Positions 28,127 through 53,709 of a DNA stretch of 64,000 bases are shown here, in pieces (position 1 is the first letter of the stretch; every line of letters starts with the position of its first letter). The stretch is taken from the NCBI GenBank assembly GCA_019694465.1, contig JAIBBV010000006.1:18843-82842 (forward strand). Reading direction: 5' to 3'. The notes beneath the pieces were generated by a model that was given only the letters and a program-made list of their open reading frames with translations, was not told the DNA's origin and did not search any database. This DNA is from Oligoflexia bacterium (GTDB lineage Bacteria > Bdellovibrionota_C > UBA2361 > JAFLCA01). The translations under genes were made by a program, and so were the position numbers.

Positions 28127-28143
28127 GCAGGTAGGTAAGGATA

Positions 28144-30311: not shown

Positions 30312-30427
30312 AAGGCCTCCTTTGTCTTGAGGCTGATGTTACGTGAGTCAAAAAAGTAATGTCGTAGTTATATAATTGTCTCTATTATATAGTAGATATA
30401 ATATACTGATATAGTTATATTATTTAG

Positions 30428-30469
30428 TGTCGATAAATTGCGACATTATGCTGTCGATGAACTGTCGAC
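30428..30469 (+). promoter_or_regulatory. cluster of TGTCGA/TCGACA half-sites (tgtcg-N8-cgaca; tgtcga-N5-tgtcgac) in an AT-rich divergent promoter region; candidate operator for the adjacent TrmB-family regulator
   Basis: Read directly. Preceded by a ~60-bp TATA-rich tract at 30362-30425. Confidence 0.35.
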
Positions 30470-31241: not shown

Positions 31242-31331
31242 CGAGACTCTGAATACCAGTGCACAACACTAACGATGCGAGCAGCATCTCCTGCAATTAC
31301 TACTCAACGGTATTTACAAGACAGCTATTTG

Positions 31332-31796: not shown

Positions 31797-32199
31797 GCAG
31801 CCCCCGTAGTTAACTAGAACCTATCTCATTAATACACTTTGAGGCAGGTTTTTGGATTGCTAGGCCCAACAAATCGGGCTTGCAATATGAAGTGGGCCTT
31901 CGTCTTCAGTGCTTCTTAGGCCCTTCTAATCGACAATACAACTACTAGCATATCCACTACTTGAGATAATGCCCATACCCTGATAATTCAAGACCTAAGC
32001 TCATAATATGCTGTCGTGAGAGTTAACTTAAATGCATTGAGTTTGGCCTAGTTCACTAGCTCAGAACATGCACTGATTGGCCTGCATTGTTTGCGTTTAA
32101 TTGTTCATTCTTGTATCGCGCATTCAAATATGAGCCGGCGACAGCATACTGCAATTGTTAAATGCATTCGCGGGTAACCTTAATTATACGGTACTTTTT

Positions 32200-32409
32200 A
32201 TGCGATACATCAAGCTTTCCATTCTTGTTGCTTTGACATTCCTCCTCTCAAGCTGCGGTGGGGGCGGTTCGCATGCCGTGTATGTGAATCGTAGTACTAC
32301 ACTGGGGCAAGAGCTCAATGACCTGCAATCAGCGCTGCAGAAAGGTGTTGTAACTGAAGATGAGTATAAAGAGCAGCGAGCAAAGTTGCTGCGTGGGCAA
32401 GACTCATAA
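32200..32409 (+). CDS. small lipoprotein with SHOCT-like C-terminal motif
   Basis: Lipobox LLSSC after an MRYIKLSILVALTF signal. C-terminal …LNDLQSALQKGVVTEDEYKEQRAKLL resembles the SHOCT (short C-terminal) domain. Confidence 0.45.
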   Translation: MRYIKLSILVALTFLLSSCGGGGSHAVYVNRSTTLGQELNDLQSALQKGVVTEDEYKEQRAKLLRGQDS

Positions 32410-32704
32410 GGACTACTGTCAGTCAGTTTAATGTGTAGTGTCGTGATGTAGGAATGGCTTGGTCCATCATCAGCCACGTTTGCAAAATGGATAGCTTGCT
32501 ATGACCCTATATCCATAGGTAGGTTACCTTTCTGCATCTCGTTGGGCGAGCCCAGCATGCCTAGCGTCCTGGCGTGCCTGCAGACCAGCTAAGCAACTAA
32601 CTATGAAAGTTTTTTAGCTAGGGCTCGTCTCTGCCGGCATGCGCGATACGCAGTCCGTATCTTGAACTTTCTGTAGGGGATGTCAGAAGGGGAGTAAAAG
32701 AGTA

Positions 32705-32741
32705 GCGGGAGTAATAAGTCTTTAAGACTTACCACTCCCGC
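32705..32741. other. 37-nt compound palindrome (gcgggagt aa taagtctt t aagactta cc actcccgc) in a 560-bp non-coding gap between convergent genes
   Basis: Read directly. Two nested 8-bp inverted repeats with no flanking U-tract. Confidence 0.5.
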
Positions 32742-32970
32742 CGGGTGGCGATGCGGGGGTTTGGTGTGTGGTCATTTCTGTAAGCGTGCATCTTGCGCAC
32801 CCGCAATAATAGTATGCATGCTTTTTTCGCGAATGTCACATATTTGAATAAACTTTTTTTATGTATCGCTGATGGATGTAAGTCCTTGAATTACCTGATG
32901 AATAGTCTTGGCGATGGGAGCCAATTTCTAGGTAAAATTATGAGGCAAGCACGATGATAATGTGTGCCGA

Positions 32971-33990
32971 TCATGGTCCCGTTAAAGGCTGGGCCAGCCC
33001 GCCAAGAAGGGCTGCCAAGTCTCTATCAGAAGCCTCGCTCAGCATCGCTAGGGCGTCATAGGGCTCTCCCTGCAGCCCAAGAATCTGGGCGATAGCAGGT
33101 TCAGTTGCATGACCTGCTCGCTTAAGCGCTCGAATCTCTTCGCGCAGCACATCGCCTCCAATTGCCAGCAGTCTTGCGGTGACAACTAGATGTAGATAAG
33201 CGCGTTGCTCCTCGACTTGGATACTAGAAGCGAATAGCTCAATCTCAAATTTTGACAATCGAAAGCCACAAACAACTGAAGCATCGTTTCTTTGCCGAAC
33301 AAAAAAGTTATCAAGGCTTCCAAAGTTAGCGCGAGCTACTTGGGAGAATCTCTCGAGGTTGGGAGCGTAGCAAATGATATCTACGTCACTGTTGGGCGTA
33401 TCTATATCTAAGCAAATCGTGCTTACCACTACAGGGTTGAATTCGGAAAGCAGTTCTAAAAGTTTATGATCGACAAGTGCATCGTGCATGGCGCGCTGCC
33501 GATTGTTCCCTGACTTTAGGTAAGAAATATCGCTCCAGTTGCGCGACGCAATTTGTGCACAGTTTTCACGGCTAACAGCGCTTAGGGGGCGAAGGCACTC
33601 TGTACTTTCAAAAATGTGATCATCCGGCCAGGTGATGCCAACGGCGATAGCCTGTTGCTTTAACTGAGCAAGGTCGTCTACTCGGCGGTATGCCCACCTT
33701 CGCCAGCGTGGGACTGCTAGCGACCACCAGCTCCAAGCCGCAACGATGCTGGTTAGAAACACAATCAATCCAAGCCAACTGTAGTCACGGGAGATCTCTC
33801 CTTGCTCGATATAAGTCGAAAATATCCAAAGTGGGCAAGAAAGATAAACTAGAACTGGAACGTTAACCCAGATTAGCCCAAACCAAATAGCCTTGCCTAC
33901 CGATAAGGTCCTGCTGACATTCCTAGTTTCTTGAGGTTGAGGGGTGTCCATCTCGATTGGAGAATATCTTGATATGCACATCAGAGCCAA
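32971..33990 (-). CDS. membrane-anchored hypothetical protein (2 N-terminal TM helices) with a possible nucleotidyltransferase-like C-terminal domain
   Basis: A hydrophobic N-terminal pair, then …VVSTICLDIDTPNSDVDIICYAPN… resembling a pol-beta-type NTase acidic motif. Weak. Confidence 0.4.
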   Translation of the reverse strand: MALMCISRYSPIEMDTPQPQETRNVSRTLSVGKAIWFGLIWVNVPVLVYLSCPLWIFSTYIEQGEISRDYSWLGLIVFLTSIVAAWSWWSLAVPRWRRWAYRRVDDLAQLKQQAIAVGITWPDDHIFESTECLRPLSAVSRENCAQIASRNWSDISYLKSGNNRQRAMHDALVDHKLLELLSEFNPVVVSTICLDIDTPNSDVDIICYAPNLERFSQVARANFGSLDNFFVRQRNDASVVCGFRLSKFEIELFASSIQVEEQRAYLHLVVTARLLAIGGDVLREEIRALKRAGHATEPAIAQILGLQGEPYDALAMLSEASDRDLAALLGGLAQPLTGP

Positions 33991-34121
33991 TTTTTGAGAC
34001 TTCTTTGTGCAAGAAAAGGTAACGTCATATTTGAAAATGCAGGGTTAAATTTCTATGAACTATTGAGTATACTTGAACGCGTTGATTCTAGCGAAAACAT
34101 TCGTGCGGGGATGGTACAAAT

Positions 34122-34796
34122 TTGTTGTTGGCAAAATATATTATGAATAAAAAGAGACTGCACATTCTAACCGATACTGACTCGCTTGTGTCGGAGTATT
34201 TAGCTGAATTGCGAAATATAAGGATTCAAGGGAATAGAGAGCGATTTCGGCAAAACTTACGGCGCATAGGAATATGCCTAGCTTACGAAATAAGTAAGCA
34301 ACTGAAATACACTAAACAAAACGTGCGTACGCCGCTTGGATCCAAGGTTTGCAGTGTGATTGGGCAACAGCCTGTAGTTGGATCAGTACTGCGGGCCGGA
34401 GTCGCGCTTCACGAGGGACTACTAGAGATGTTCCCTGATGCGGACAACGCCTTTGTTGGGGCATACCGACAGGAAGGGTCGGCAAAAGTTGCGGTTAAGC
34501 TAGATTATGTGGGCGCCCCGAAACTAAGGGGTCGTGTACTAATTTTTGGAGACCCTATGCTGGCCTCTGGAACCTCTATGATCCAGGCATTGCGTGCCGT
34601 TATGCGGTTTGGACAGCCCAAAGCACTTTACCTAGCTGCTGTTATTGCCAGCAGGCAAGGAGTAGCCCGCGTACTTAAGGAATTTCCTGAGGCGAATCTG
34701 TGGGTTGGGGCTATGGATCCCAAACTGGACGCTAAGGCCTATATAGTGCCGGGCCTGGGGGACGCTGGCGATCTGGCATTTGGGCCAAAAGTTTAA
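34122..34796 (+). CDS. upp: uracil phosphoribosyltransferase
   Basis: …VLIFGDPMLASGTSM… PRPP-binding loop and C-terminal …YIVPGLGDAGDLAFGPK, the UPRTase signature. Confidence 0.85.
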   Translation: MLLAKYIMNKKRLHILTDTDSLVSEYLAELRNIRIQGNRERFRQNLRRIGICLAYEISKQLKYTKQNVRTPLGSKVCSVIGQQPVVGSVLRAGVALHEGLLEMFPDADNAFVGAYRQEGSAKVAVKLDYVGAPKLRGRVLIFGDPMLASGTSMIQALRAVMRFGQPKALYLAAVIASRQGVARVLKEFPEANLWVGAMDPKLDAKAYIVPGLGDAGDLAFGPKV

Positions 34797-34864
34797 CGAG
34801 AGTTTAATGTAGTTTTTTTCAACACCTGCCTCCCCTTCTCGATTACTAATTAGGAAGGGGTCGC

Positions 34865-35653
34865 ATGTACGCAGAAACCGTGAGCACAGAAGCACACAAG
34901 AGTCGCCGAGACGCGCTAATCGAAGAGTACCGTAACTATGTTAGTGCGGTGGTTGGGCATTTGATCTCGAGCATGGGGCTGCCACGAAGTTGCTCAGACG
35001 AATTTATTGCAGCAGGCTATTTGGGTCTAGTAGAGGCAGCTGAGCGCTTTGACTTTTCATCCGGGTATCCATTTAAGAACTTTGCTTTCTTGCGCATTCG
35101 CGGCGCAATTATAGATAGCATCCGCGAGTGCTCTGAATTAACCGGCAAAGCCTACCGCTATGCACGAGCGCTCAAGGCGGCCCAGGAAATGCGTGAAGAT
35201 GACGAAGCTTTAGCCACACTTTCTGCCAGTGGTTTCAATGTAAACAGTCAAGTTACCCTCAATGCTGTGATGGGTTACCTAGGCCAGAGTGTGGTAGCGA
35301 ATCGTCTGAATGTGGTGAGTTTCCACGGCCTCTTAAATGCTGAACCAGGTGTTGAAGCTAGCCCGGAGGCCAATTTCCTGCGCCGTGAGGATATTGAGAA
35401 AATGCGAATTTTGGTGCGCGAGTTGCCGAAGCGTGAGCGCACTGTCGTTGAGGAGTTCTACTTCAAGGGGCGCCCTTTCATAGAAATTGGCCAGAAGATG
35501 GGGGGCTACTCAAAGTCTTGGGTTTCGCGGGTGCATTCCAGCGCACTTAAGGCCCTTTTAGAGGCTTATAGTAAGATTCAGGAACTACAAGAGAAGCCCT
35601 GCCCTAAAGTATCCAATTCAAACGGGCGTACTAAGAAAAAGTCTCGCGCTTAA
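34865..35653 (+). CDS. sigma-70 family alternative sigma factor, group 3 (FliA/WhiG sigma-28-like)
   Basis: Region 2 (…DEFIAAGYLGLVEAAERFD…FKNFAFLRIRGAIIDSIRE…) and region 4.2 (…IEIGQKMGGYSKSWVSRVHSSALKAL…). About 260 aa with no region 1.1. Confidence 0.7.
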   Translation: MYAETVSTEAHKSRRDALIEEYRNYVSAVVGHLISSMGLPRSCSDEFIAAGYLGLVEAAERFDFSSGYPFKNFAFLRIRGAIIDSIRECSELTGKAYRYARALKAAQEMREDDEALATLSASGFNVNSQVTLNAVMGYLGQSVVANRLNVVSFHGLLNAEPGVEASPEANFLRREDIEKMRILVRELPKRERTVVEEFYFKGRPFIEIGQKMGGYSKSWVSRVHSSALKALLEAYSKIQELQEKPCPKVSNSNGRTKKKSRA

Positions 35654-35817
35654 GGCAACATCGTAGCCGCTACTCGTAAATAATTTGCAGACCGCAGATC
35701 CTAAGCTGAGCCTAGGGGCAGGCAGGAGAATTGTCGATTACTAGATATGTTACAATGTGCTAAACACCCATCATAACTAAGGAGGGAAGTTTATGTGTCG
35801 CTATTAAGGCATGTTGT

Positions 35818-36201
35818 ATGGCTCACAAGATACTTAGTTACTTGCTGCTAGTTCTCCTTGCATCTCTAGCGCAAGTACAGCCAACCTACGCACAGGCAAA
35901 AACATCTGTTTTGACTCTGCCCATGCATGTGGAAGACTCAAATATACCAGTCCTAATTGGACTCCCCGGGACTGCTACCATGGCAGCCAGTGCCGGCAGA
36001 TATAGTAGCGTACTGCTTAGACATCAAGATATTGCGATTTGTCCGCCTTGTGAATGTACGTTAGCGATAGATGATTCGATTGATTTATACGTACGGATTT
36101 GCATCACCGCGCGTTGCCCGAGCTCAAATTTTCAAGATGATTGGGCGAGATTTTGTAGCGATTACATATCGCGGAATACAGCCTGGCAGCGAATCAATTA
36201 G
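35818..36201 (+). CDS. small secreted Cys-rich hypothetical protein
   Basis: Signal peptide MAHKILSYLLLVLLASLAQVQPTYAQA; 8 Cys in the mature part. Fits the gap between the sigma factor gene and convergent cysNC. Confidence 0.35.
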   Translation: MAHKILSYLLLVLLASLAQVQPTYAQAKTSVLTLPMHVEDSNIPVLIGLPGTATMAASAGRYSSVLLRHQDIAICPPCECTLAIDDSIDLYVRICITARCPSSNFQDDWARFCSDYISRNTAWQRIN

Positions 36202-36277
36202 TCGCGCCAAACAGATCGAGTCCAGCTGGAGGCGCTGAATAGCACTCGACCCAATGCGCCAAGCGCAAGTTCCACCA

Positions 36278-38182
36278 TCAACTAATCGCAATAATTCTGG
36301 CGACACATTCGGTAATCGTTGAATTTGCTGTGTCGAGTTTAAGCGCTGGATTAAGCGGTGGTTCATACGGGGAACCGATGCCTGTGAATTCAGGGATTTC
36401 CCCTTTCCGCGCCTTTTTGTAGAGGCCATGCGGGTCGCGCGCCTCACATACTTGCAGTGGTACATCCAAGTAAATCTCGACGAAACGTTCGCTGCCAATT
36501 ATGCTGCGAGCAGCAGCACGGTCTCTCCTAAATGGTGATACCAAGCTACAAATCACGCTCATGCCAGCTTCGTTAAAAAGTTTGGCCACTTCAGCCGTTC
36601 GACGCACATTCTCCCCGCGGTCCTCAATCGAGAACCCCAAATCCCTGTTAAGCCCGCTTCGAAGATAATCACCATCCAAGTGGAATATTGGAATTTTTTT
36701 ATCAAATAACGCACGTTCCAGGGCTCTGGCTATGCTCGATTTCCCTGAACCCGATAAGCCTGTAAGCCAGTACGTCTTAGCTCGAACGCCGGAGAGTTCC
36801 TCACGCTCTGCTTGCTCCACCAGTTTTGTATCGATATGTAGGTTTCTAGCTTGCTCGGCCGACTGGCGACGTAGCAATTGATTGGCCCAATAATCATTTC
36901 CGAGAGAATCGATGATCATTCCTGCCCCAACTGTATTATAGCTGATGGGATCTATTAGGATGAAGCTGCCCATGGCGCGGTTTCTCTCATACGGATCTAT
37001 CCACATAGGTTTGGTAGATTTGATAGTCCATCGAGCGATTTCATTCAATTGCATCCCGCCTCCGGGGAGACACTTGAGAGAAGAGCAATCAATCTTATAT
37101 TTGCAATTCTGAAGTATTACTTTGCTGTCGAAGGAGGCATGTTTAAGCAATAGAGTCAGGCCAGCATCGACATGATCCGCGCTCATCCAAATGATCATGG
37201 CGTCAAGCTCGCTGCGGGTCTCTGGAATATTATTGGAATCCACGAGAATTGATCCCCTTCCGACATCTAGATGGCGGTCGAGTACAACAGTCACGGATTT
37301 GCCAGCGCAGGCTTGCTCATATTGCTGCATTGTGCCGTCGATTCCAAGTTGCACTAATTGATGAATGCGCGCCTTGGTCTGACTGGGGAGAACAGTTACC
37401 TCGCAACCAACCCGCAATACACCTGAACAAACCTTGCCACCATAGCCCCTGAATGTTGCGCTTGGGTTTATTGTGCACTGGATGGGCACACGTAAGTCCA
37501 GCTGATTTAGATCGCTCTCGACTGGCGCAGTCTCTAAAATTTCGAGTACTGTTGACCCCTGATACCAGGGCATTTTTCTGCTGTTAACAGCGACATTGTC
37601 TCCGTGCAAGGCAGATATGGGGATGAAGGATAGCATGCCAAGGTTCAAATGATTCGCAAACGCAAGAAAATCCTTATTAATCTGATCGAATACTTCCTGC
37701 CGATAATCCACGAGATCCATTTTATTGACGGCCACAATTACTCGAGGAACACGCATTAGAGCTGAGATGAACGCATGGCGCTTCGTTTGCGGGAGGACGC
37801 CCTTGCTCGCGTCGATAAGTATGATAGTGAGCTCAGCGTTTGACGCTGCCGTCGCCATGTTACGGGTGTACTGCTCATGGCCAGGACTATCCACTAAAAT
37901 GAAACGCCGCTTGAGGGTAGAGAAGTAACGATAGGCAACGTCAATAGTAATGCCCTGCTCTTGTTCAGCTTTAAGCCCATCGGTAACTAATGCGAAGTCC
38001 AAAAGCGACGAGGTATTTCGTTTAGAACGTGCTTGCAGAGAGCTAAGCTGGTCGTCGAATAGGGCTCCCGTGTCGTAAAGTAACCTTCCTAGCAGGGTAG
38101 ATTTTCCATCATCAACAGATCCAGCTGTTGAAAAGCATAATAACTCTTGTCGTAGGGGGCTGGCTGAATCCGAGAGTAGCAT
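36278..38182 (-). CDS. cysNC: bifunctional sulfate adenylyltransferase subunit 1 (CysN GTPase) / adenylylsulfate kinase (CysC)
   Basis: N-terminal GTPase motifs (GSVDDGKST, DSPGH, NKMD). C-terminal APS kinase P-loop (GLSGSGKSS) and …FVEIYLDVPLQVCEARDPHGLYKKARKGEIPEFTGI…. Confidence 0.9.
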   Translation of the reverse strand: MLLSDSASPLRQELLCFSTAGSVDDGKSTLLGRLLYDTGALFDDQLSSLQARSKRNTSSLLDFALVTDGLKAEQEQGITIDVAYRYFSTLKRRFILVDSPGHEQYTRNMATAASNAELTIILIDASKGVLPQTKRHAFISALMRVPRVIVAVNKMDLVDYRQEVFDQINKDFLAFANHLNLGMLSFIPISALHGDNVAVNSRKMPWYQGSTVLEILETAPVESDLNQLDLRVPIQCTINPSATFRGYGGKVCSGVLRVGCEVTVLPSQTKARIHQLVQLGIDGTMQQYEQACAGKSVTVVLDRHLDVGRGSILVDSNNIPETRSELDAMIIWMSADHVDAGLTLLLKHASFDSKVILQNCKYKIDCSSLKCLPGGGMQLNEIARWTIKSTKPMWIDPYERNRAMGSFILIDPISYNTVGAGMIIDSLGNDYWANQLLRRQSAEQARNLHIDTKLVEQAEREELSGVRAKTYWLTGLSGSGKSSIARALERALFDKKIPIFHLDGDYLRSGLNRDLGFSIEDRGENVRRTAEVAKLFNEAGMSVICSLVSPFRRDRAAARSIIGSERFVEIYLDVPLQVCEARDPHGLYKKARKGEIPEFTGIGSPYEPPLNPALKLDTANSTITECVARIIAIS

Positions 38183-39075
38183 TAAAAATACCCCTCCCGC
38201 TTTTTTAGCTCCATCGACGCATCTTGGTCATAATCAATCACGCGAGTTTTTCTCTCTGACACACGCGTGTCCTGTAATTCGGCAATAATTTTTGGCACTG
38301 TGTCGGCCTCTGATACTACCGCTCCGGTGCATGGCATGCATCCCAAGGTACGGAAGCGACAACGAAGAGCTACGGGGGACTCATTCGATTTGAGCGGTGC
38401 AAAAGATGTAATTGGGATTAGCATGTTTCCGCGCTGTAACACCTGCCTGATCCTTGAGAAATATAATGAAGCGACGGGAATTCGCTCACGGAGAATATAT
38501 TCCCAAATATCAATTTCGGTCCAATTTGAGAGAGGAAAGGCGCGAATAGACTCGCCCAGCCGCACCTTTCCATTGAGCAGGCTCCAAAGCTCAGGTCGTT
38601 GATTTCTTGGTTCCCACTGTCCGAACTGGTCACGAAATGAAAATACACGCTCTTTAGCTCTAGAGCGTTCTTCTTCGCGCCTTGCACCTCCGATCGCAGC
38701 GTCAACCTTATGCAGGCGAAGTGCCTCAAGTAGCGCTTGGGTTTTAAGTAGGCGACAGCAATGTTCAGTGCCTAACTCGAAAGGGTTGGCTCCATCCGCG
38801 ATGGCGCGTTCATTTCGATAAACTATCAACTCTGCTCCCGCGGTCCTACAAGTTTCGTCACGGAACTCATACATCTCGGGGAACTTGAAGCCTGTGTCGA
38901 TGTGTAACAAGGGAAATGGAATTTTTCCCGGAGCGAAAGCTTTCTGGGCCAAGCGCAGTAGCACAGAAGAATCCTTGCCGACGGAATACAGCATTATAGG
39001 TCGAGCGAACTGAGCGACAATCTCACGAAAAATATATATGCTTTCGGCCTCCAGCCTATCGAGATGACTTTCCAT
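38182..39075 (-). CDS. cysD: sulfate adenylyltransferase subunit 2 (CysD)
   Basis: …IMLYSVGKDSSVLLRLAQKAF…PFPLLHIDTGFKFPEMYEFRDE… PAPS-reductase-like fold. Its stop overlaps the cysNC start. Confidence 0.9.
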   Translation of the reverse strand: MESHLDRLEAESIYIFREIVAQFARPIMLYSVGKDSSVLLRLAQKAFAPGKIPFPLLHIDTGFKFPEMYEFRDETCRTAGAELIVYRNERAIADGANPFELGTEHCCRLLKTQALLEALRLHKVDAAIGGARREEERSRAKERVFSFRDQFGQWEPRNQRPELWSLLNGKVRLGESIRAFPLSNWTEIDIWEYILRERIPVASLYFSRIRQVLQRGNMLIPITSFAPLKSNESPVALRCRFRTLGCMPCTGAVVSEADTVPKIIAELQDTRVSERKTRVIDYDQDASMELKKREGYF

Positions 39076-39154
39076 GCCAGTTCTATAGCTCAGAGGTTCT
39101 ATATAAAACAGGGTTCATTTAAAAGTTCCTTAAAGCGCTAGAGTTTCCCAGAAA

Positions 39155-40339
39155 TTAACTTGCTAGTTGTACTTGACGCTCCCAGCGACAGGAGTAGTCA
39201 GCAGCAACAAAGCCGATAAAGGTGTTGTGTTGGTGCTCTAAGAATAATTGGAGTGGTATCTCAAGCGTGTATCCAAAAAACGATTCACTCGCATTAGGCA
39301 GGAAGTTCGGGTATGCCTTCCTTACATCTACGCGTTCCATGGTGCAGATATTATGAGCGAGTACCCGATCATTGCTACGGAGATATACAAAAGCCGGTGC
39401 CAATCCACTTGCTGATTCAAAGCACCAACCTCCAATACTAATATTACCTGGAGAGTAAAGCACAGAATCAATCGCAAATATGACGGAAGGCTGCGAGCCG
39501 GAATGGAGCGGCTGTATTTGTGGCAGGCCTTGATGAGTGCTGGGGGGGACTGGGGCATCTAAGCTGCCATCAGAATCCTGTTGCTTTGATAAGAAATGCT
39601 CCAATATGAATTCAATCAACTCGTAGTCAGGCGCATTTGCAGCCCGTACGTCATTTAAATCTTGTTCGCTAATTTCAAAGTCTCGATTTGCTCCCGAATT
39701 TACCACCTTGTCAGCACTGGGCGGGTTAAAATGTACACCTAAAAGCGGTGACAGTCGGCGCATACTCTCGGCTAAGTGCTCCGTAATCCCTACGAACGCA
39801 AAGTGATTCAAGATTGTCTTTCGAGCAAGCTTAATTTCCCTTGAACCAATCTGCTTTGGCTGTTCCTCAAGAAAAGCGCGAGTTAGTGCGTTTGAGTTCT
39901 CTGGAAATTCGGGGGATAAACAAAAGTCTCGAAAGTTCAATGGAGAGTTTGAATGACGCCAAAAATTTCGCCCATCAAACCTTAGCGTTGAATGGAAATA
40001 GTCAGATACAAGACGACGCAGGGGATCCCGCACAAATGAAATAAGCTTAAAACCATCAAACTGACAGCAGTCTCGTAAGCCCAGATGGCCAGAAATAAAA
40101 CGTATTGACTGGCGCGAAGTTGGACTAAGCGCGTTCCAGGCTCTGAGACTGCAGTTCTCGGCTCCGTAAAACTGAGCAAATTGCCCGGGTGTAAGGTGCT
40201 TATGGATTGCACTAAGAAACCACTTGCCGGCTGTTTTCGGGATATGCATGAAGCAAAATTTAGAATTCATGTTCGTGTGGTTACCTTTCAGCAACATGCT
40301 TGGTTGATTCACAGAGATACTGGGATCCACCAACATCAA
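39155..40339 (-). CDS. PAPS-dependent sulfotransferase (Sulfotransfer_2-like) with a ~150-aa C-terminal extension
   Basis: 5-prime-PSB motif …MHIPKTAGKWF… and 3-prime-PB-like …RDPLRRLVSDYFH… In an operon upstream of cysD/cysNC on the same strand. Confidence 0.65.
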   Translation of the reverse strand: MMLVDPSISVNQPSMLLKGNHTNMNSKFCFMHIPKTAGKWFLSAIHKHLTPGQFAQFYGAENCSLRAWNALSPTSRQSIRFISGHLGLRDCCQFDGFKLISFVRDPLRRLVSDYFHSTLRFDGRNFWRHSNSPLNFRDFCLSPEFPENSNALTRAFLEEQPKQIGSREIKLARKTILNHFAFVGITEHLAESMRRLSPLLGVHFNPPSADKVVNSGANRDFEISEQDLNDVRAANAPDYELIEFILEHFLSKQQDSDGSLDAPVPPSTHQGLPQIQPLHSGSQPSVIFAIDSVLYSPGNISIGGWCFESASGLAPAFVYLRSNDRVLAHNICTMERVDVRKAYPNFLPNASESFFGYTLEIPLQLFLEHQHNTFIGFVAADYSCRWERQVQLAS

Positions 40340-40869
40340 CGGTCCGACCAGAGTGATCAGGGGCTACAGGCGTAAGCAGGCAACAAATAGTCACAAGGGC
40401 GACCTGGCTGTAAAAATAGCTTGCCTGATATGCAGTCGATTTCATGTTCATCTTCTCTGGATTGAAACAATCATTGAGAGAAGGTCGTAAGGCCCTTAAC
40501 CCGGAGGATCGGGGGATCTATTGAATTTTTATCAACCAACATCAATTTCTTCCGAGTGATTGAGGGGCGCGCACCCCGAGGCCCCAGTAGTTATTAGCAG
40601 GCCCATTATCAACACAACACAGTGGTTGGTCAATCTTTTAGGCAATAAATGATGATGAAAATTGCAAGCGCGGCTAATGGTTCAAAAATTGTAAAACCTA
40701 TTCAATGCGCTTAAGCCACTGGAAGATAGTAAAGAACGCATAACTTGCTGGTGTTTCAGCGCCTGTTTCGAGTCTTCCTTGAAAGGCAATTGGAGACGGC
40801 TAGGAGAAGTCTGAACAATCTAAAGACATTTTTTTCAACACTTGCCATTGGCTACCGATAAGCTCATGT

Positions 40870-41664
40870 GTGCCTTTAACAAAGGGCTTAAGCATGAAAG
40901 CTCGCGCAAAATTTGCATGTGTCGTAACTCGCCTGTCCGTCCTACTTGGCCTACTTTTCCTATGTAGTTGTCGCGAGACAATAGTTCACAATCTTTCAGA
41001 GCGGGACGCCAATCGCCTACTAACGCGCCTGCATGATGTGAGTATAGAGGCCACTAAAGAGAAGCAGCCCGATGGAAATTGGAGTATTGCGACTACTGAG
41101 GACGAGGCACTGCGCGCGATTAAGTTTCTAGATGATGCGCGCTTTTTTAGGCGTGAGGAGCTGCCTCAAGACAACGAAGAGTCGGTATTGGCTAGTCCCG
41201 AAGAACGGCGCGCTCGCACAAACCGCTTATTAGCGCGTGAGTTGGAAGCCAGTATCCGTAGCATCGATGGTATTCTGGAAGCGCACGTACACCTAAACAT
41301 ACCGCCCTTAGATCCAATTTTTGGCACAGTAGCGAGCCTTCAGCATGGCTCAGGCAGCGTGGTGGCAACTGTTGCACCGGGGAATAAGGTCATGGTTGGT
41401 GATTTGCAGGCACTTGTGTCTGGAGCGACTGGAATAGCTCCTAAGGATGTGAGTGTCCTGCTCGCGGATGGAGACATCGCTAGGGATGGCTTATTGCAGC
41501 CAAAGTCGCATGAAGTTGGGAATGAATCTACGTCATGGTGGGCAGCGGTCCTGTTGCGCAGGGAAGTAGTGTTGCTAATTGGGGTCGGACTCCTGCTGCT
41601 AGGTTTTGCTTTGCTGCATGCTTTACAAACATCACGAGGAGTGAGTTCGGAGGTGGCCCAGTGA
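40870..41664 (+). CDS. sctJ: type III secretion inner-membrane ring lipoprotein SctJ (YscJ/PrgK/EscJ family)
   Basis: Lipobox LLFLCSC, YscJ-family core (…LLTRLHDVSIEATKEKQPDGNWSIATTEDEALRAIKFL…ILEAHVHLNIPP…) and C-terminal TM helix. The likely start is ATG 40894. Confidence 0.8.
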   Translation: MPLTKGLSMKARAKFACVVTRLSVLLGLLFLCSCRETIVHNLSERDANRLLTRLHDVSIEATKEKQPDGNWSIATTEDEALRAIKFLDDARFFRREELPQDNEESVLASPEERRARTNRLLARELEASIRSIDGILEAHVHLNIPPLDPIFGTVASLQHGSGSVVATVAPGNKVMVGDLQALVSGATGIAPKDVSVLLADGDIARDGLLQPKSHEVGNESTSWWAAVLLRREVVLLIGVGLLLLGFALLHALQTSRGVSSEVAQ

Positions 41665-41864
41665 GTGAGCCAGAGCCAAATGAAACACGCGCGCAATGGG
41701 AAGAAAAGTTTTTGGCCGCTTTGTTCCTGCATGGCTTGCGACTGCGAGTCAATTGCTTGGCAGGGATAGATAAGGAACGGGTCAGCGCTTTAGCTCGTGA
41801 TATCGAAGATATGCCAGAAGCATGGGCCATGGATTGGGCGCTTAGCCGATTCGACTACAGGTGA
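41661..41864 (+). CDS. small T3SS-associated ORF, translationally coupled to sctJ (GTGA overlap)
   Basis: In frame with listed ORF 41535-41864. GTG at 41661 overlaps the sctJ stop. 67 aa with no recognisable motif. Confidence 0.3.
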   Translation: MSEPEPNETRAQWEEKFLAALFLHGLRLRVNCLAGIDKERVSALARDIEDMPEAWAMDWALSRFDYR

Positions 41865-41868
41865 GCAA

Positions 41869-42795
41869 ATGGGATTGAGGGCTAAATTAATTCAAGACAG
41901 CTGCGTCAATGATGCCGGACTATTAGAGGAATTTATTAGCGAGCTAGCTGGCTATCTGCTTGGATGCTCCGCCAAAGCATATATATCAGATTGTGTATGT
42001 CGCACGATGCAAAGCAACGTATGGGTCTGCCTACGGCAGCAGGGTGGGGCCGCCTTCATGCTAGGTATCCCAGCCCAAACTGAGATAGACCGCGAAGTAT
42101 TTCAATTTTCATGTTTAGCCCGTGTAATGGCGTTCCTCTCAAATACTGGCCGGAATGAAGTAATTCTCCCAAATATTGAGCTAGATTCTGGCTGCAGGAC
42201 ATGGCAGGTGGACATACTTGCCAGCCAGAATTCGACCCTTCTCTCACAATGGACATTGTGCAGACACTCTGCGGCTAAATGTCTTGATAGCGAGAAACAT
42301 GGGCGCGTAGCTTACCCACAGCGTCTCAGGGCAGAAATCGGAATCAAGTTAGGTGCCACTACATCGCTTCAGCGCCGCTATGAACTTAGCAGGTTGAGTT
42401 GGTTTTTGAGGACCAGCGAAGTGGAATGGTCGCTTAAATGTGATGGCACTAATCAATTTTATGTAAGTGGAGAAAACAGCATGAGCAGTGATCGCCTGAA
42501 GCTAGAGATAATGATTGGAAGCGTGGAGATAGGGCTAGAGGAGTTTTCGGCTCTTCGCCCCGGTTGCCGACTTGCACTTGAGATAGGTGCTCCGATTGAA
42601 GGCACCCTATGTGTAAACGGGGTGGCGTGGGCAGCTGTACAGCTGGAGTTTGGTCCTAATGCCAATGAAATTAGGATATTAGAAATGTTGGATTTGACAC
42701 TGCGTAAGGCTGAACTGCCGGAAATGGCAACACTCGCTGAGATATTCCGATTAGATGATCAGACATCCTCAAACGAGAAAGACGCTAGAAGTTGA
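41869..42795 (+). CDS. sctQ: type III secretion cytoplasmic-ring protein SctQ (YscQ/HrcQ; SpoA/FliN-like C-terminal domain)
   Basis: C-terminal …LKLEIMIGSVEIGLEEFSALRPGCRLALEIGAPIEGTLCVNGVAWAAVQLEFGPNANEIRILEM is a SpoA domain. ATG 41869 has the RBS aggtga and directly follows the upstream stop; the listed ORF starts at 41797. Confidence 0.6.
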   Translation: MGLRAKLIQDSCVNDAGLLEEFISELAGYLLGCSAKAYISDCVCRTMQSNVWVCLRQQGGAAFMLGIPAQTEIDREVFQFSCLARVMAFLSNTGRNEVILPNIELDSGCRTWQVDILASQNSTLLSQWTLCRHSAAKCLDSEKHGRVAYPQRLRAEIGIKLGATTSLQRRYELSRLSWFLRTSEVEWSLKCDGTNQFYVSGENSMSSDRLKLEIMIGSVEIGLEEFSALRPGCRLALEIGAPIEGTLCVNGVAWAAVQLEFGPNANEIRILEMLDLTLRKAELPEMATLAEIFRLDDQTSSNEKDARS

Positions 42796-42907
42796 CTCAA
42801 AGATAGCTTCTAGTCGCGCCAAGGATGGCGCGGCAAACGCCGAAGGCGTTTGTAGCGAGGCGAGGCATGGGCACTTTGGGACCCATGCCGAGCTCGAAGC
42901 GAATTAA

Positions 42908-42927
42908 AAATGGGCAGGAGCCCATTT
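42908..42927 (+). terminator. 8-bp stem / 4-nt loop hairpin (aaatgggc agga gcccattt) followed by TT, between sctQ and the needle/rod-like gene; attenuator or terminator-like
   Basis: Read directly. A second 7-bp inverted repeat gcatggg…cccatgc lies at 42865-42888. Confidence 0.35.
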
Positions 42928-42958
42928 TTGAAATGACTTGTACTAAAGGAGAGACAAT

Positions 42959-43258
42959 ATGGAATCAGTAAATGGCAATGATGCAGCGGCAACAATTTCT
43001 AGCTTAGGATACTCACGATTTCTTCCCGAGCCGACTAGCCGGCTATCTTCAGTTTTTAGCAGCATACTACAGGGGATAACTGGAGCAGCCAAAAGTGCAT
43101 CCGGACTCTTCTCCGGTATTGATTCCGGTTACGTCGAGTTGCTCAATAAGCAAATCGAATCGCAACAGCAGATGCAGCTAGTCTCAATGGAATCAAACGT
43201 AGAGAAATCGAAGCACGAAACTCAGATGGCAGCTATTCGTAACGTACGGGTGGGATAA
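42959..43258 (+). CDS. small T3SS needle / inner-rod family protein (SctF/SctI-like)
   Basis: 99 aa; Ser/Ala-rich N-terminus. The C-terminal …LVSMESNVEKSKHETQMAAIRNVRVG fits the needle/rod C-terminal pattern (h..SN..K……IRN[IFV]). Sits between sctQ and sctV with a strong RBS (aaaggagag). Confidence 0.4.
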   Translation: MESVNGNDAAATISSLGYSRFLPEPTSRLSSVFSSILQGITGAAKSASGLFSGIDSGYVELLNKQIESQQQMQLVSMESNVEKSKHETQMAAIRNVRVG

Positions 43259-43289
43259 TTCGGCAACTGAATTCAGCCAGAGGCGGCAT

Positions 43290-45155
43290 ATGAAACAGTT
43301 GATGGTACCTGGAGTGCTGGTCGCAATTGTGGCGAGTATGCTACTCCCGTTGCCGCCTCTAGCGCTTGATTTTCTGATAGTTGCCAACCTAGTCCTGGCA
43401 TTCGTTCTGTTGGCATCAACTGTTTATATCGCCGAGCCAATGAAACTGTCCTCTTTGCCGACAATATTACTGCTCGCCACCTTGTATAGGCTGGCACTTA
43501 ATATTTCTACATCTCGGCAGATTCTTTCACATGGCGAAGCTGGGCAGGTGATTGAGGCGTTTGGAGCAATAGTTATTCAGGGAAATATCTTAGTCGGTCT
43601 GGTTGTATTCATGATCGTATCGATTGTGCAGTTTGTTGTAATCGCAAAGGGCGCTGAACGAGTCGCGGAGGTTACAGCTAGATTTACTCTGGATGCTTTG
43701 CCCGGAAAGCAGATGTCGATCGATGCAGATGTGCGCGCTGGGCTACTAGATGGGGCTGGTGCACAGGCCAAACGCCAAGAGCTGCAAATTGAGTCACGTT
43801 TTTATGGCGCCCTAGATGGGGCAATGAAGTTTATTAAGGGAGATGCTCTGGCTGGGTTGGTGATAGTGGTGCTGAACCTTTGTGGTGGGTTTGGTGTGGG
43901 CGTTGCCATGCAGGGCATGAATCTTAAGCAAGCTGTGACACATTATTCGGTCCTGAGTGTTGGTGATGCGCTTGTCGCGCAGCTTCCAGCTCTGCTTAAT
44001 GCCTTGGCGGCTGGAGTGATAGTAACCCGCGTTTCTCGCGGCGATGGCACTTCACTAGCGAATGAGCTTCCCATGCAGCTTGGGCAGTTGCGTGTTGTTA
44101 AGTTCCTCACAGCTGGATTGGCTGCTGTATGTGCATTTTTGCCCGGCATGCCGACACTTCCATTTCTGATGTTCGGCTTGCTCATGTTGATTATGGCTTG
44201 TGTGCACCAGGCGGCGCAGGAGGAAGTGCCTCTCTGCGCTGATCGGTTTAATCCTAAGGCAGTGCCACTCATAGGATTGGAGTTCGGCACTGAAATTTCG
44301 AAGACTTTGCAGGGGCATGGGAAGGATCTTGTGCGCGCTATCGATGGGGCACGCGAGAGATTGTACGCTTCTACCGGGGTGCTAGTGCCGACCCCCGATG
44401 TGATTAGAGTTGACAAGCTAGGCAGCGCATTTTGCCTGTGCCTGCGTGGCATAGAGGTGGCACGCGAGTCGGCGCAAGGAACAGTGGCAGAGGTAGTATC
44501 GGCTGTTGGCAATTTAGTTCAGGCCGCCCTGATCAAGCATCAGTTAGAGCTCGTTGATGACAGGATGACACGCGCTCTTTTGGATATCCTGGAGCGCGAG
44601 GCGCCCGAGTTGGTTTCGTCAGTTGTGCCCGGCATAGTGAGCATCACGCAGATTAGCATGATTCTCAAGGAGCTGCTGCGCGAGGGAGTGCGAATTAGAA
44701 ACTTTGACCTGATTCTTCAGGCCCTTGCTGAACATGGACCAAAAGCACGCAATGAACGCGCGCTTTTAGAGGAAGTGAGAGTATCGTTGAGCCGCTCCCT
44801 ATGCGCGGACCTTGTAGACTCACAAGGACGCATAGCTTGCTATGAAGTGGCACCATTATTTGATGTTTGGCTAGTAGCAGCAGAGAAAGAAGGCAAAGCA
44901 ATTGATCCACTCTTAATTGCTAAGCTGGCAAACGAAATAAGTGCTGCTGCTGTAAATTGCGGTCCAGTGGTTGTAGTAGTGTCGAAAGGAGGACGGGCCT
45001 ACCTGCGGGATTGCCTTAAGCTACGACAAATATCGGCGACGCTCTTAGCATATGAGGAGATACCTATTGACCTCAGCATAGTCTCACAAGGCAGACTTGG
45101 GTCGTGCATAGCAGAGGAGGAGCATGAAACGATTGTTCAAGCCCTTGCTGCTTAG
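43290..45155 (+). CDS. sctV: type III secretion export-gate protein SctV (FHIPEP family; YscV/InvA/FlhA homologue)
   Basis: N-terminal TM domain is near-identical in pattern to YscV (…LLPLPPLALDFLIVANL…FGAIVIQGNILVGLVVFMIVSIVQFVVIAKGAERVAEVTARFTLDALPGKQMSIDADVRAGL…GAMKFIKGDALAGLVIV…). Context with SctJ (not FliF) argues for a non-flagellar system. Confidence 0.9.
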   Translation: MKQLMVPGVLVAIVASMLLPLPPLALDFLIVANLVLAFVLLASTVYIAEPMKLSSLPTILLLATLYRLALNISTSRQILSHGEAGQVIEAFGAIVIQGNILVGLVVFMIVSIVQFVVIAKGAERVAEVTARFTLDALPGKQMSIDADVRAGLLDGAGAQAKRQELQIESRFYGALDGAMKFIKGDALAGLVIVVLNLCGGFGVGVAMQGMNLKQAVTHYSVLSVGDALVAQLPALLNALAAGVIVTRVSRGDGTSLANELPMQLGQLRVVKFLTAGLAAVCAFLPGMPTLPFLMFGLLMLIMACVHQAAQEEVPLCADRFNPKAVPLIGLEFGTEISKTLQGHGKDLVRAIDGARERLYASTGVLVPTPDVIRVDKLGSAFCLCLRGIEVARESAQGTVAEVVSAVGNLVQAALIKHQLELVDDRMTRALLDILEREAPELVSSVVPGIVSITQISMILKELLREGVRIRNFDLILQALAEHGPKARNERALLEEVRVSLSRSLCADLVDSQGRIACYEVAPLFDVWLVAAEKEGKAIDPLLIAKLANEISAAAVNCGPVVVVVSKGGRAYLRDCLKLRQISATLLAYEEIPIDLSIVSQGRLGSCIAEEEHETIVQALAA

Positions 45156-45723
45156 GGCAGCGCTAGTGTCACTGATCATAAGCGTAACGGCATGCTCACC
45201 AACCATAATTCTCCCTAGTTTGGAGGAACGACGAAGGGCCATCTCGTTGGTTGATGAAGGAACCCTGCAGCTACGCCAAGGAGAGCTTTCTAGTGCGGAG
45301 GCTTCTTTTAGGGTTGCCTATGACTTGGCTTACCTCCCTCAGGCCTTGGATGGCTTGGGTTGTGTGGCACTACGGCGTCAAGACTTCAAAAATGCTGAAA
45401 AGTTTTTTCGAGGTGCATTGGAACTTGATCCAACATATATACAGGCACTTGCTAACCTTGCTTTTCTGCTCGAAGAGCAGGGTAACAGCAAAAAAGCGGA
45501 GCAGTTGTATCGAAAGAGTGTGGAGTTGGACCCGGCGAATGCTGGGGTAAGAAATAACTTCGCAGTTAATTTGGCTCACGGGCCGCATCAACACTTGGCA
45601 CTTGAGCAGTTCCAAGCTGCCCTTGTCTTGAGCGGTAATCCAGCAATTCGGGACAATCGTGCGCTAGCGCTCATGGAGACAGAGCAGGACCTAGCGCTAA
45701 AACCTAAAATTGATCATAATTAA
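45124..45723 (+). CDS. TPR-repeat lipoprotein, T3SS-linked
   Basis: Signal plus lipobox (…LIISVTAC). About 4 TPR units (…AEKFFRGALELDPTYIQALANLAFLLEEQGNSKKAEQLYRKSVELDPANA…). The RBS gaggagg and ATG overlap the sctV 3-prime end. Confidence 0.6.
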   Translation: MKRLFKPLLLRAALVSLIISVTACSPTIILPSLEERRRAISLVDEGTLQLRQGELSSAEASFRVAYDLAYLPQALDGLGCVALRRQDFKNAEKFFRGALELDPTYIQALANLAFLLEEQGNSKKAEQLYRKSVELDPANAGVRNNFAVNLAHGPHQHLALEQFQAALVLSGNPAIRDNRALALMETEQDLALKPKIDHN

Positions 45724-45736
45724 CGGGAGTACAGCC

Positions 45737-53708: not shown

Positions 53709-53709
53709 A

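Follow-up and report, generated by a model that had tools for sequence, protein, structure and literature searches.

A putative glycan-sulfation operon inserted beside a partial type III secretion-like cassette in an Oligoflexia bacterium

Does a sulfotransferase gene that lies back to back with genes of a type III secretion system (T3SS)-like apparatus serve that apparatus, or does it belong to a sulfation module of its own? The question is raised by a 64-kb stretch of DNA (hereafter the window, meaning the whole stretch that was analysed) from a predatory-type (Oligoflexia/Bdellovibrionota) bacterium. Three open reading frames lie there on the minus strand in the order sulfotransferase, cysD and cysN-cysC fusion (cysNC), as the initial annotation had it, and all three exceed curated family thresholds.

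The identities first given to the two sulfate-activation genes are borne out at those thresholds. cysD (38182..39075, minus strand) encodes an ATP sulfurylase small subunit of 297 aa, which scored 171.9 bits against PF01507, 437.4 bits against TIGR02039 (cut-off 396.6) and 439.5 bits against NF003587. The 634-aa product of cysNC (36278..38182, minus strand) reached 770.5 bits with the NCBIfam model of bifunctional CysN/CysC (NF004035, cut-off 715). Its Pfam architecture is GTP_EFTU (146.5 bits), GTP-eEF1A_C and APS_kinase (206.7 bits), the GTPase part occupying aa 1 to about 440 (36863-38182) and the APS kinase part aa about 455-634 (36281-36820), and the motifs GSVDDGKST, DSPGH, NKMD and GLSGSGKS are visible. 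The start of cysNC overlaps the stop of cysD by one base (TAATG), preceded by the Shine-Dalgarno sequence GGGAGGGG, and no terminator-like site was found in the 79-bp spacer between the sulfotransferase gene and cysD. The sulfotransferase gene is the first of a compact co-oriented unit, and the three genes probably form one operon expressed as a single transcript. The region upstream of the operon (40271..40830, no strand assigned) has no assigned role, no match in Rfam and no counterpart in related loci; it contains one sigma-70-like site (40633-40605, minus strand), no more than expected by chance. The operon does diverge from sctJ as described earlier, but the gap is about 620 bp (from ATG 40270 to the sctJ ATG at 40894) rather than 530 bp.

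The sulfotransferase gene (39155..40270, minus strand) almost certainly starts at ATG 40270, giving 371 aa: the NCBI gene model (P0001, 371 aa, 100% identical) has this start, and P0003 and P0004 have matching N-termini; relatives begin 4-6 residues ahead of the first strand. The TTG at 40339, which would give 394 aa, is a mechanical ORF start. The sole Pfam match of the protein is Sulfotransfer_2 (PF03567), with a modest score of 32.4 bits (gathering score 22, E = 1.4e-7). The catalytic domain (aa 1-233; 39572..40270, minus strand) is supported by an AF2 model, Foldseek and the family profile, and pLDDT is mostly >90 over these residues when the model is built with a 90-sequence MSA. Both motifs originally noted in the protein, IPKTAGK as the 5'-PSB and RDPLRRLVS as 3'-PB-like, are present: HIPKTAGK (Lys12) and RDPLRRLVS (Arg81, Ser89) occupy columns of the 90-sequence family alignment that are invariant or nearly so, and Gly61-His62 is the remaining key element. 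PAPS sulfotransferases require three residues, a basic one in the 5'-PSB, a serine in the 3'-PB and, between these two, a histidine that acts as base (PMC6637879); here the catalytic triad Lys12/Ser89/His62 aligns with PKTAS / HGH / RDPIERLVS of HS2ST. Indeed, the closest solved folds are those of the animal heparan-sulfate (HS) 2-O- and 6-O-sulfotransferases: Foldseek against the PDB gave HS2ST (4ndz/3f5f) and HS6ST (5t03) as best matches (E = 1e-8 to 1e-6, probability 1.0), and the family profile matched HS6ST at 1.2e-26 and HS2ST at 3.3e-20 with PKTA(G/S), the GH His and RDPxxRxxS aligned. Unlike these animal enzymes, which are Golgi type II membrane proteins and share 15-19% identity with it, the protein has no signal peptide, is predicted to be cytoplasmic and carries an additional C-terminal domain. 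By sequence and modelled fold, the gene is predicted to encode a genuine PAPS-type sulfotransferase, Sulfotransfer_2 / HS2ST-like.

The C-terminal extension, at first put at ~150 aa, exists but is somewhat shorter, about 140 aa made up of a ~30-aa linker and a ~108-aa beta domain. The Q/S/P-rich linker (aa 234-262; 39485..39571, minus strand) has pLDDT <50 and lacks secondary structure in both models. The domain that follows (aa 263-371; 39158..39484, minus strand) is, judging from repeat homology, a Big_7-like Ig/beta-sandwich domain of a type repeated in cell-wall hydrolases: it matches the 5-7 tandem repeats of amidase/glucosaminidase proteins carrying Pfam Big_7 and keeps their GW, R-DV and YP motifs. 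The single-sequence model is beta-rich here, and the match of the domain in the PDB, to amidase 8c4d, is marginal (E = 0.0035).

The reading that we consider probable is that the three-gene operon, which was inserted beside sctJ, makes PAPS for the O-sulfation of a glycan acceptor, and that the adjacency is incidental. A similar supply line operates in rhizobia, where NodP is CysD and NodQ a CysN-CysC fusion, both encoded by extra gene copies on the symbiosis plasmid, and the PAPS goes to a dedicated carbohydrate sulfotransferase, NodH, whose acceptor is a lipochitooligosaccharide. NodH belongs to another sulfotransferase family, whereas the present protein matches only Sulfotransfer_2 in Pfam. 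Published work treats the clustering of sulfotransferase genes with genes for PAPS synthesis as a hallmark of biomolecule sulfation (PMC11641403, PMC8743553, PMC9417993). In Campylobacter jejuni HS:19, 'cluster VI' (cysD-cysN-permease-cysC-putative sulfotransferase) likewise brings a sulfotransferase and an APS kinase together with a CysD/CysN heterodimer as sulfurylase in a small cluster without reductive-branch genes, and its authors propose sulfation of surface glycans or proteins (PMC8743553). That cluster, as putative in function as the present operon, has a separate cysC and a sulfate permease and lies by capsule/LOS genes, whereas here CysN and CysC are fused, there is no transporter and the operon sits between a sigma factor gene and a T3SS-like cassette. 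The capsular locus of Vibrio sp. KMM 8419 also unites cysN, cysD and cysC, demonstrably second copies, with carbohydrate sulfotransferases, but does so among 80 genes including glycosyltransferases and a Kps ABC exporter (PMC11641403), in contrast to three genes without adjacent glycosyltransferases. Xanthomonas RaxST with RaxP/RaxQ had been named as a further precedent. RaxST, a tyrosyl-protein sulfotransferase modelled on TPST2, does rely on CysD / CysNC-type enzymes, but these are described as core housekeeping enzymes encoded outside raxX-raxSTAB (PMC6637879), and it is therefore no example of the arrangement.

How far do these precedents carry over? The earlier view that the operon arrangement is a signature of sulfation holds for the linkage of sulfotransferase and PAPS genes, but not for the CysN-CysC fusion by itself, because 14 Bdellovibrionota-type loci have cysD-cysNC without this sulfotransferase and flanked by sulfatases (17 of 101 neighbours). 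The conserved pair occurs without this sulfotransferase family in 41 related loci. Being so widespread in the phylum, cysD-cysNC may therefore serve mainly assimilation, that is, general sulfate activation (APS/PAPS for cysteine), with the sulfotransferase riding on the transcript of a dual-use rather than dedicated module. The sulfatases resemble sulfate scavenging, the Xanthomonas enzymes are described as housekeeping (PMC6637879), and M. tuberculosis CysDNC is a branch point feeding both routes (PMC4373884). We nevertheless regard this possibility as rather unlikely. The reported lack of cysH/cysIJ nearby was confirmed and widened: no PAPS-reductase or sulfite-reductase family was found among ORFs of at least 150 aa in the 64-kb window, searching the window with a CysD profile revealed no paralogue resembling cysH, and the Bdellovibrionota loci have no cysH, cysI or cysJ family at a distance of 10 kb or less from cysD. 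The sulfotransferase gene, moreover, heads the unit, and the nearest relative of CysNC is only 56% identical, versus relatives at 69-94% for neighbouring genes, a divergence compatible with an extra, acquired copy.

If the operon is dedicated to sulfation, what does it sulfate? Instead of a glycan, the enzyme could modify a lipid, a sterol/hopanoid, a protein tyrosine or a small metabolite, again with PAPS made in cis. Bacteroides thetaiotaomicron BT_0416, which like the present sulfotransferase lies directly beside a PAPS-biosynthesis cluster (BT_0411-0415), sulfates cholesterol; that activity was shown experimentally (PMC9417993), whereas the present one is predicted, and so the same linkage can serve a sterol acceptor. 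Nor does any glycosyltransferase adjoin the operon, the nearest being at 48962-49804 and 10185-15776. A non-glycan acceptor nonetheless seems quite improbable, since glycan O-sulfotransferases outrank cytosolic SULTs and TPST in both fold and sequence matching, the C-terminal domain has counterparts in cell-wall hydrolases, and glycosyltransferases and ABC-2 exporters of polysaccharides predominate among the neighbours of relatives. Among 123 neighbours within 2.2 kb of sulfotransferase relatives in 33 metagenomic loci were 12 GT1, 8 GT2 and 5 GT4 glycosyltransferases, 9 Sulfotransfer_1 and 6 Sulfotransfer_3 proteins, 6 ABC-2 transporter pairs, 2 Wzt_C, 2 Wzy_C and 2 APS kinases; an APS kinase was nearby in 5 of 80 loci of relatives. 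The nearest full-length relative, P0004, adjoins giant GT2/GT1 proteins, UDP-galactopyranose mutase and methyltransferases.

A glycan-sulfating operon could still be tied to secretion, and the initial annotation had raised this possibility from its position. The neighbouring genes are indeed T3SS-like, but form a partial cassette: an SctJ/YscJ-FliF-family lipoprotein with a lipobox (40894..41664, plus strand, alternative start GTG 40870; PF01514 44 versus 24.4 bits, TIGR02544 83.8 bits, below the cut-off of 161.95), homologous to the related loci L047/L048 from 40969 on; a protein of ~308 aa (41869..42795, plus strand) whose C-terminal domain weakly resembles SpoA (FliN/SctQ-like) domains (FliMN_C E = 0.03; FliN 8umd at E = 0.0098 with a three-sequence profile; a weak precomputed FliMN_C match in the L130 orthologue); a 621-aa FHIPEP export-gate protein of the SctV/FlhA family (43290..45155, plus strand; PF00771 534.8 bits; hrcV 482.9 and FlhA 470.6 bits, both under cut-off; NCBI name FlhA); and a TPR lipoprotein (45124..45723, plus strand; TPR families), conserved in position in L047, L048 and L130. 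A fuller system is not seen, as ATPase, SctRSTU and secretin are missing in every locus seen. At its left edge the interrupted cassette has a FliA/WhiG-like sigma factor gene (34865..35653, plus strand; Sigma70_r2 + r4; TIGR02479 83.2 bits, below the cut-off of 189.6). In three independent relatives (L048/L049, a 153-kb JGI contig and L130) the sigma gene directly precedes sctJ, at a spacing of at most about 90 bp or with overlap, whereas here the interval is about 5.2 kb and holds orf127, cysNC, cysD and the sulfotransferase gene. Window positions 27840-35503 align collinearly with L048 74-7692, and 40969-48676 with L048 7841-15333; 35654-40869 has no match anywhere in L048. This marks the operon as an insertion specific to the lineage, and it adjoins sctJ because this segment came to lie between the sigma-28-like gene and the cassette. 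The segment also contains orf127 (35818..36201, plus strand), which encodes a small, Cys-rich protein bearing a signal peptide; the gene is convergent with cysNC and has no match in Pfam or NCBIfam and no counterpart in L048.

The sctJ gene, in turn, retains its own proximal promoter-like element, which it has in common with the sigma gene (TTTTTCAACACTTGCC...ACCGATAA; 40831..40861, plus strand, just upstream of sctJ) and which resembles a sigma-28 site (TCAA-N15-ACCGATAA). The 16-nt core of the element has exactly two copies in the window (0.01 expected), the other lying ahead of the sigma gene at 34815-34830; the same motif precedes sctJ in L047, and the element is absent from the sulfotransferase side. 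Although the operon does run divergently from sctJ and the sulfotransferase would be cytoplasmic, like T3SS substrates before export, co-regulation with and service to the T3SS-like apparatus, for example by sulfating a secreted substrate or envelope glycan, is very improbable given the insertion, the separate promoter-like element, the incomplete cassette, the absence of SctJ or SctV from all 43 cysNC-related loci and of any sulfotransferase relative above 29% identity among 1.84 billion cluster representatives. The suggested coupling is thus not upheld: the adjacency is incidental, and the operon is a fairly ordinary sulfation module, not a part of a secretion system.

In the glycan-sulfation reading that we favour, CysD and the GTPase CysN would convert sulfate and ATP to APS, which the fused CysC domain would phosphorylate to PAPS. 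The co-transcribed cytoplasmic sulfotransferase would then use its Lys12/His62/Arg81/Ser89 set to move the sulfo group from PAPS onto a carbohydrate hydroxyl. The likeliest acceptor is an intermediate of a polysaccharide or glycoconjugate of the cell surface, and the Big_7-like Ig domain of the enzyme may plausibly aid glycan binding or positioning of the enzyme.

Three co-oriented open reading frames lie on the minus strand within 36278-40339 of the window, in the order proposed by the initial annotation: a sulfotransferase gene (39155-40270), cysD (38182-39075) and cysNC (36278-38182), each above its family threshold. The cysD stop and cysNC start overlap by 1 nt (TAATG), with GGGAGGGG just ahead, and a spacer of 79 bp, in which a terminator scan revealed no terminator-like site, separates the sulfotransferase gene from cysD. 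The sulfotransferase gene is thus physically linked to the genes for PAPS synthesis. CysD (297 aa) scored 437.4 bits against TIGR02039 (threshold 396.6) and 434.9 bits against NF009214 (cut-off 413). CysNC (634 aa) comprises GTP_EFTU, GTP-eEF1A_C and APS_kinase domains, scored 770.5 bits against NF004035, the NCBIfam model for bifunctional CysN/CysC (cut-off 715), and has intact nucleotide-binding motifs in its translation (G1 GSVDDGKST, G3 DSPGH, G4 NKMD and the kinase P-loop GLSGSGKS). The NCBI gene model of the database protein identical to the sulfotransferase (P0001, 'MAG: sulfotransferase family protein [Oligoflexia bacterium]') is 371 aa long and, like the two full-length relatives of the protein, starts a few residues ahead of the first beta strand; we therefore place the start at ATG 40270 rather than at TTG 40339. 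With this start the divergent gap to sctJ (ATG 40894) widens from the 530 bp first reported to about 620 bp.

The sulfotransferase passed the Pfam model PF03567 (Sulfotransfer_2) with 32.4 bits (gathering threshold 22, E = 1.4e-7), and neither Sulfotransfer_1 nor Sulfotransfer_3 matched it at E <= 0.01, in line with the subfamily that had been proposed. The two motifs described earlier, HIPKTAGK and RDPLRRLVS, are both present in the translation. Searched exhaustively with HMMER, 1.84 billion cluster representatives yielded 1,671 relatives at E <= 0.001; E <= 1e-30 was reached solely by the protein itself, and the next best matches were 29% and 26% identical. In an alignment of 90 sequences His9, Gly15, Gly61, Arg81, Pro83, Ser89 and Asp215 were invariant, and Lys12 and His62 were conserved in at least 90%. 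As quoted in PMC6637879, the Negishi rule requires of a PAPS sulfotransferase that its 5'-PSB contain a basic residue and its 3'-PB a Ser, with a His or Glu acting as the base between the two. This set is complete here, the catalytic residues being Lys12 (HIPKTAGK, 5'-PSB), His62 (GH) and Arg81/Ser89 (RDPLRRLVS, 3'-PB).

The closest structural neighbours are enzymes that act on heparan sulfate. The family profile matched the zebrafish 6-O-sulfotransferase HS6ST (5t03) at 1.2e-26 and the chicken 2-O-sulfotransferase HS2ST (4ndz/3f5f) at about 1e-20, and the PKTA(G/S), GH and RDPxxRxxS motifs align with those of both. AF2 modelled residues 1-233 confidently (pLDDT mostly >90) when given the 90-sequence alignment; the mean pLDDT from the single sequence was 42.9. 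In the alignment-based model the protein is predicted to have the sulfotransferase fold (P-loop-like alpha/beta), and Foldseek placed 4ndz, 3f5f and 5t03 at the top of the PDB matches to the catalytic domain (probability 1.0), HS2ST and HS6ST ranking above cytosolic SULTs and TPST. Since the protein carries no N-terminal signal sequence, it should be cytoplasmic, that is, located in the compartment where PAPS arises.

The catalytic domain is followed by a Q/S/P-rich linker (aa 234-262) and a C-terminal domain (aa 263-371) that is beta-rich in AF2 models. The model built with the alignment resolved the catalytic domain only, because just three sequences cover the C-terminus. In sequence searches the C-terminal domain matched five to seven tandem repeats in proteins of 850-1080 aa, which carry Amidase_3 or Glucosaminidase catalytic domains together with Pfam Big_7 repeats; GW, R-DV and YP motifs are common to the domain and the Big_7-type repeats. 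A profile of the domain gave a marginal match in the PDB, to N-acetylmuramoyl-L-alanine amidase only, and Pfam returned nothing meaningful for the isolated C-terminus. The combination of sulfotransferase and Ig domain was found, among the 1.84 billion cluster representatives, in the window protein and its two distant full-length relatives (P0003 and P0004) only. We infer that the Ig domain serves in glycan binding or in positioning the enzyme.

To what kind of acceptor the family is tied can be judged from its genomic neighbours. A scan of metagenomes with the family alignment yielded 80 loci, and in the 33 of these that span 8 kb or more the genes lying within 2.2 kb of the sulfotransferase gene were counted (n = 123). 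Among them were glycosyltransferases (GT1 12, GT2 8, GT4 5), further sulfotransferases (Sulfotransfer_1 9, Sulfotransfer_3 6), export components (ABC-2 pairs 6 + 6, Wzt_C 2, Wzy_C 2) and APS kinase (2). Since families of polysaccharide biosynthesis dominate, the sulfotransferase family is glycan-associated; it is sometimes tied to PAPS supply, with an APS kinase nearby in 5 of the 80 loci. The P0004 gene itself adjoins genes for multi-GT2/GT1 proteins of 881 and 1746 aa, UDP-galactopyranose mutase and methyltransferases. Neither cysD nor cysN occurred near the relatives in any of the 80 loci, and the exact sulfotransferase-cysD-cysNC operon was seen neither there nor among the loci recovered with CysNC (below).

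The operon is not embedded among genes for acceptor biosynthesis: its immediate neighbours are orf127, the gene for a sigma-28-like factor (34865-35653) and the SctJ cassette, and glycosyltransferase genes of the window lie more than 8 kb away. At 10185-15776 there are genes for a 1156-aa fusion of a GT1-like domain and a SAM-methyltransferase, a dTDP-4-dehydrorhamnose 3,5-epimerase (RmlC) and a GT2. About 24 kb separate these candidates for polysaccharide biosynthesis from the sulfotransferase gene, and they recall the GT/methyltransferase context of P0004. Elsewhere in the window we noted a protein of 584 aa in which residues 377-515 form a partial Sulfatase-family domain (60999-62753, minus strand) and an 841-aa protein with a match to the HZS_alpha middle domain (2090-4615, plus strand).

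We favour, as the probable function of the operon, PAPS-fed O-sulfation of a carbohydrate acceptor. CysD and CysN would form APS, the fused CysC would convert APS to PAPS, and the presumably co-transcribed cytoplasmic sulfotransferase would O-sulfate the acceptor, for example a surface polysaccharide or a glycoconjugate intermediate. NodPQ/NodH is a comparable arrangement. The operon also works like the Bacteroides BT_0411-0416 genes, cluster VI of C. jejuni HS:19 (PMC8743553) and the Vibrio locus for sulfated CPS (PMC11641403). The RaxPQ/RaxST precedent invoked by the initial annotation is not a close analogue, because the Xanthomonas PAPS enzymes are described as housekeeping genes outside the raxST cluster (PMC6637879).

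An assimilatory or dual-use role of the operon, which is compatible with glycan sulfation, seems to us rather unlikely. Scanning contigs of species-representative genomes with CysNC yielded 43 loci, the best from Bdellovibrionota/Bdellovibrionales MAGs at 50-56% identity, and cysD-cysNC was kept as a pair in 41 of them; the window's sulfotransferase family was in none. Since the pair is common across the phylum, it is by itself no sulfation signature; of the signature claimed originally, what stands is the linkage of a sulfotransferase to the PAPS genes. Formylglycine-type sulfatases made up 17 of the 101 neighbouring ORFs in 14 Bdellovibrionota-type cysD-cysNC loci, which points to a connection of sulfate activation with the scavenging of sulfate esters in these bacteria; the sulfatases often stand on both sides of the pair (L004-L015, L018, L020). 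The 25 commonest families listed for these 14 loci included no recurrent sulfotransferase, cysH or sulfite-reductase family. Consistent with the earlier remark that cysH and cysIJ are not nearby, no cysH, cysI/cysJ or sir family turned up among ORFs of 150 aa or longer anywhere in the window, which also has no second PAPS_reduct-like ORF, and a CysD-profile search detected no cysH-like ORF in the window or in these 14 loci.

That the sulfotransferase acts on something other than a glycan has a precedent in Bacteroides BT_0416 (PMC9417993); given the neighbours of the family and its likeness to HS2ST and HS6ST, we regard this as improbable.

The operon stands next to genes that resemble those of type III secretion, and a coupling of the two had been proposed. 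Rightwards from the operon, the window encodes an SctJ/YscJ-FliF lipoprotein (sctJ, 40894-41664), the product of a small ORF, a ~308-aa protein whose C-terminus weakly resembles SpoA/FliN, a protein of 99 aa, an FHIPEP protein of 621 aa and a TPR lipoprotein. As a set, these fall short of an injectisome. The SctJ-like protein scored 83.8 bits against TIGR02544 (cut-off 161.95), and the FHIPEP protein scored 482.9 bits against hrcV (cut-off 692.25) and nearly as much, 470.6 bits, against FlhA, missing both cut-offs; the cassette passes the broad Pfam models YscJ_FliF and FHIPEP only, below the SctJ/SctV equivalog level. No SctN ATPase, SctR/S/T/U or secretin SctC was found in the 64-kb window. 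In four related loci (L047, L048, L130 and a 153-kb JGI contig) the ~10 kb around the cassette likewise contained neither an ATPase nor SctRSTU/FliPQR-FlhB nor a secretin; such genes may be located in other parts of the genome.

The cassette is itself conserved in Bdellovibrionota (window 34865-46051, broken by 35654-40869; L047 336-5237; L048 7084-12825; L130 7022-12687). It consists of genes for the sigma-28-like factor, the SctJ-like lipoprotein, a 63-76-aa protein, a FliN/SpoA-like protein of about 305 aa, a 96-99-aa protein, an FHIPEP protein of about 620 aa, the TPR lipoprotein and a protein of about 100 aa. More than 100 such FHIPEP proteins (about 600-660 aa, 45-69% identity) are in public data. 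Genes for a GT2, an LPG_synthase_TM, a 224-aa and a FlgO-like protein are kept downstream (window 48962-52439; L047 8001-11432), the GT2/LPG_synthase_TM pair also in the 153-kb contig. The cassette may represent a minimal gate for export, a derivative of the flagellum or part of a dispersed T3SS. A literature search on T3SS in Oligoflexia/Bdellovibrionota returned nothing describing it, and such an apparently minimal T3SS-like cassette, headed by a gene for a sigma-28-like factor and found across Bdellovibrionota, may be a more interesting lead than the sulfation operon.

Synteny contradicts the proposed coupling. In relatives, whose FHIPEP proteins are 55% (L048/L049), 53% (153-kb JGI contig) and 47% (L130) identical to that of the window, the gene order is M48 - TerC - ... 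- Usp - UPRTase - sigma - SctJ, then small - ~305 aa - ~97 aa - FHIPEP - TPR, and between the sigma gene and sctJ there is either an overlap or a gap of no more than about 90 bp. By tblastx, window 27840-35503 is collinear with L048 74-7692 and window 40969-48676 with L048 7841-15333; 35654-40869 has no counterpart in L048. The adjacency of sigma gene and sctJ in relatives and the missing L048 match mark the segment of about 5.2 kb at the sigma/sctJ junction, orf127-cysNC-cysD-sulfotransferase, as a lineage-specific insertion, and it is by insertion that the operon came to stand beside the T3SS-like genes. Genes flanking the operon on the cassette side (40894-55274) have relatives at 69-94% identity in L047, the closest related locus, whereas the closest relative of CysNC among 5.8 billion cluster representatives is 56% identical, a pattern that fits a sister lineage in which the operon is missing or has not been sampled. 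In L047 only 335 bp of contig precede sctJ, and this stretch matches neither side of the window.

Within the insert, orf127 (35818-36201, plus strand) is convergent with cysNC; its product is small and rich in Cys and has a signal peptide, with no family match and no counterpart in the syntenic relatives. Flanking repeats are limited to one 12-nt near-repeat, GCGCTTAAGGCA / GCGCTTAAGCCA, at 35646-35657 and 40707-40718, the first copy of which spans the stop codon of the sigma gene; it is probably due to chance and could be a remnant of target duplication. No integrase or tRNA was noticed as a sign of a mobile element. Recent foreign acquisition finds no support in the GC3 or codon usage of the inserted genes, neither of which stands out, and flanking repeats are unconvincing. 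Compared with L048, the window also has a Peripla_BP_6 protein and a TrmB-like regulator in place of ExoD-PheT-PheS (29169-31241), and a DUF4269 gene between Usp and UPRTase (32477-33990); the region around the operon is evidently a hotspot of rearrangement.

The window contains exactly two copies of a 16-nt element, TTTTTCAACACNTGCC, against 0.01 expected by chance. Both are on the plus strand: one at 34815-34830, upstream of the sigma gene, and one at 40831-40846, directly upstream of sctJ, where it runs into ACCGATAA, a sigma-28-like -10 box. The second copy with its extension resembles a promoter of the FliA type, TCAA-N15-ACCGATAA; with one mismatch allowed, the match to the sigma-28 consensus is not by itself statistically significant, whereas the duplicated 16-nt core is. 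The motif also lies upstream of sctJ in L047 (123-138) and is not conserved in more distant relatives. Since it stands at both genes and has no copy on the sulfotransferase side, the control region of sctJ is compact and has its element in common with the sigma gene. The other ~560 bp upstream of the sulfotransferase gene showed no RNA family and no significant promoter match; Rfam found no RNA family in the whole window or, searched permissively, in the divergent region, and scans for sigma-70 promoters and terminators gave counts not above those of shuffled sequences. These results argue against shared divergent control without amounting to proof.

Against co-regulation of sulfation and secretion, as first suggested, stand the position of the sigma gene beside sctJ in relatives and the lack of SctJ and SctV in all 43 CysNC loci, and we consider a coupling of the operon to the cassette very unlikely. 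That the operon was recruited to sulfate a component or cargo of a poorly understood minimal export apparatus, with the conserved 99-aa protein or a glycan carried by a surface filament or sheath as conceivable targets, is likewise very unlikely; if true, it would be the first link of sulfation with type-III-like export in predatory Bdellovibrionota.

The operon is, then, a real and fairly ordinary sulfation module with a rare sulfotransferase-Ig architecture. The concept of a sulfotransferase linked to PAPS genes is already well established; two-domain enzymes in which an HS2ST-like catalytic domain is joined to a Big_7-like Ig domain are rare, and this one may interest those seeking polysaccharide sulfotransferases. 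We know of no report of a sulfated surface glycan or glycoconjugate in Bdellovibrionota, and literature searches found none. If carbohydrate sulfation is indeed what the operon carries out, an uncultured Oligoflexia lineage would make a sulfated surface glycan or glycoconjugate.
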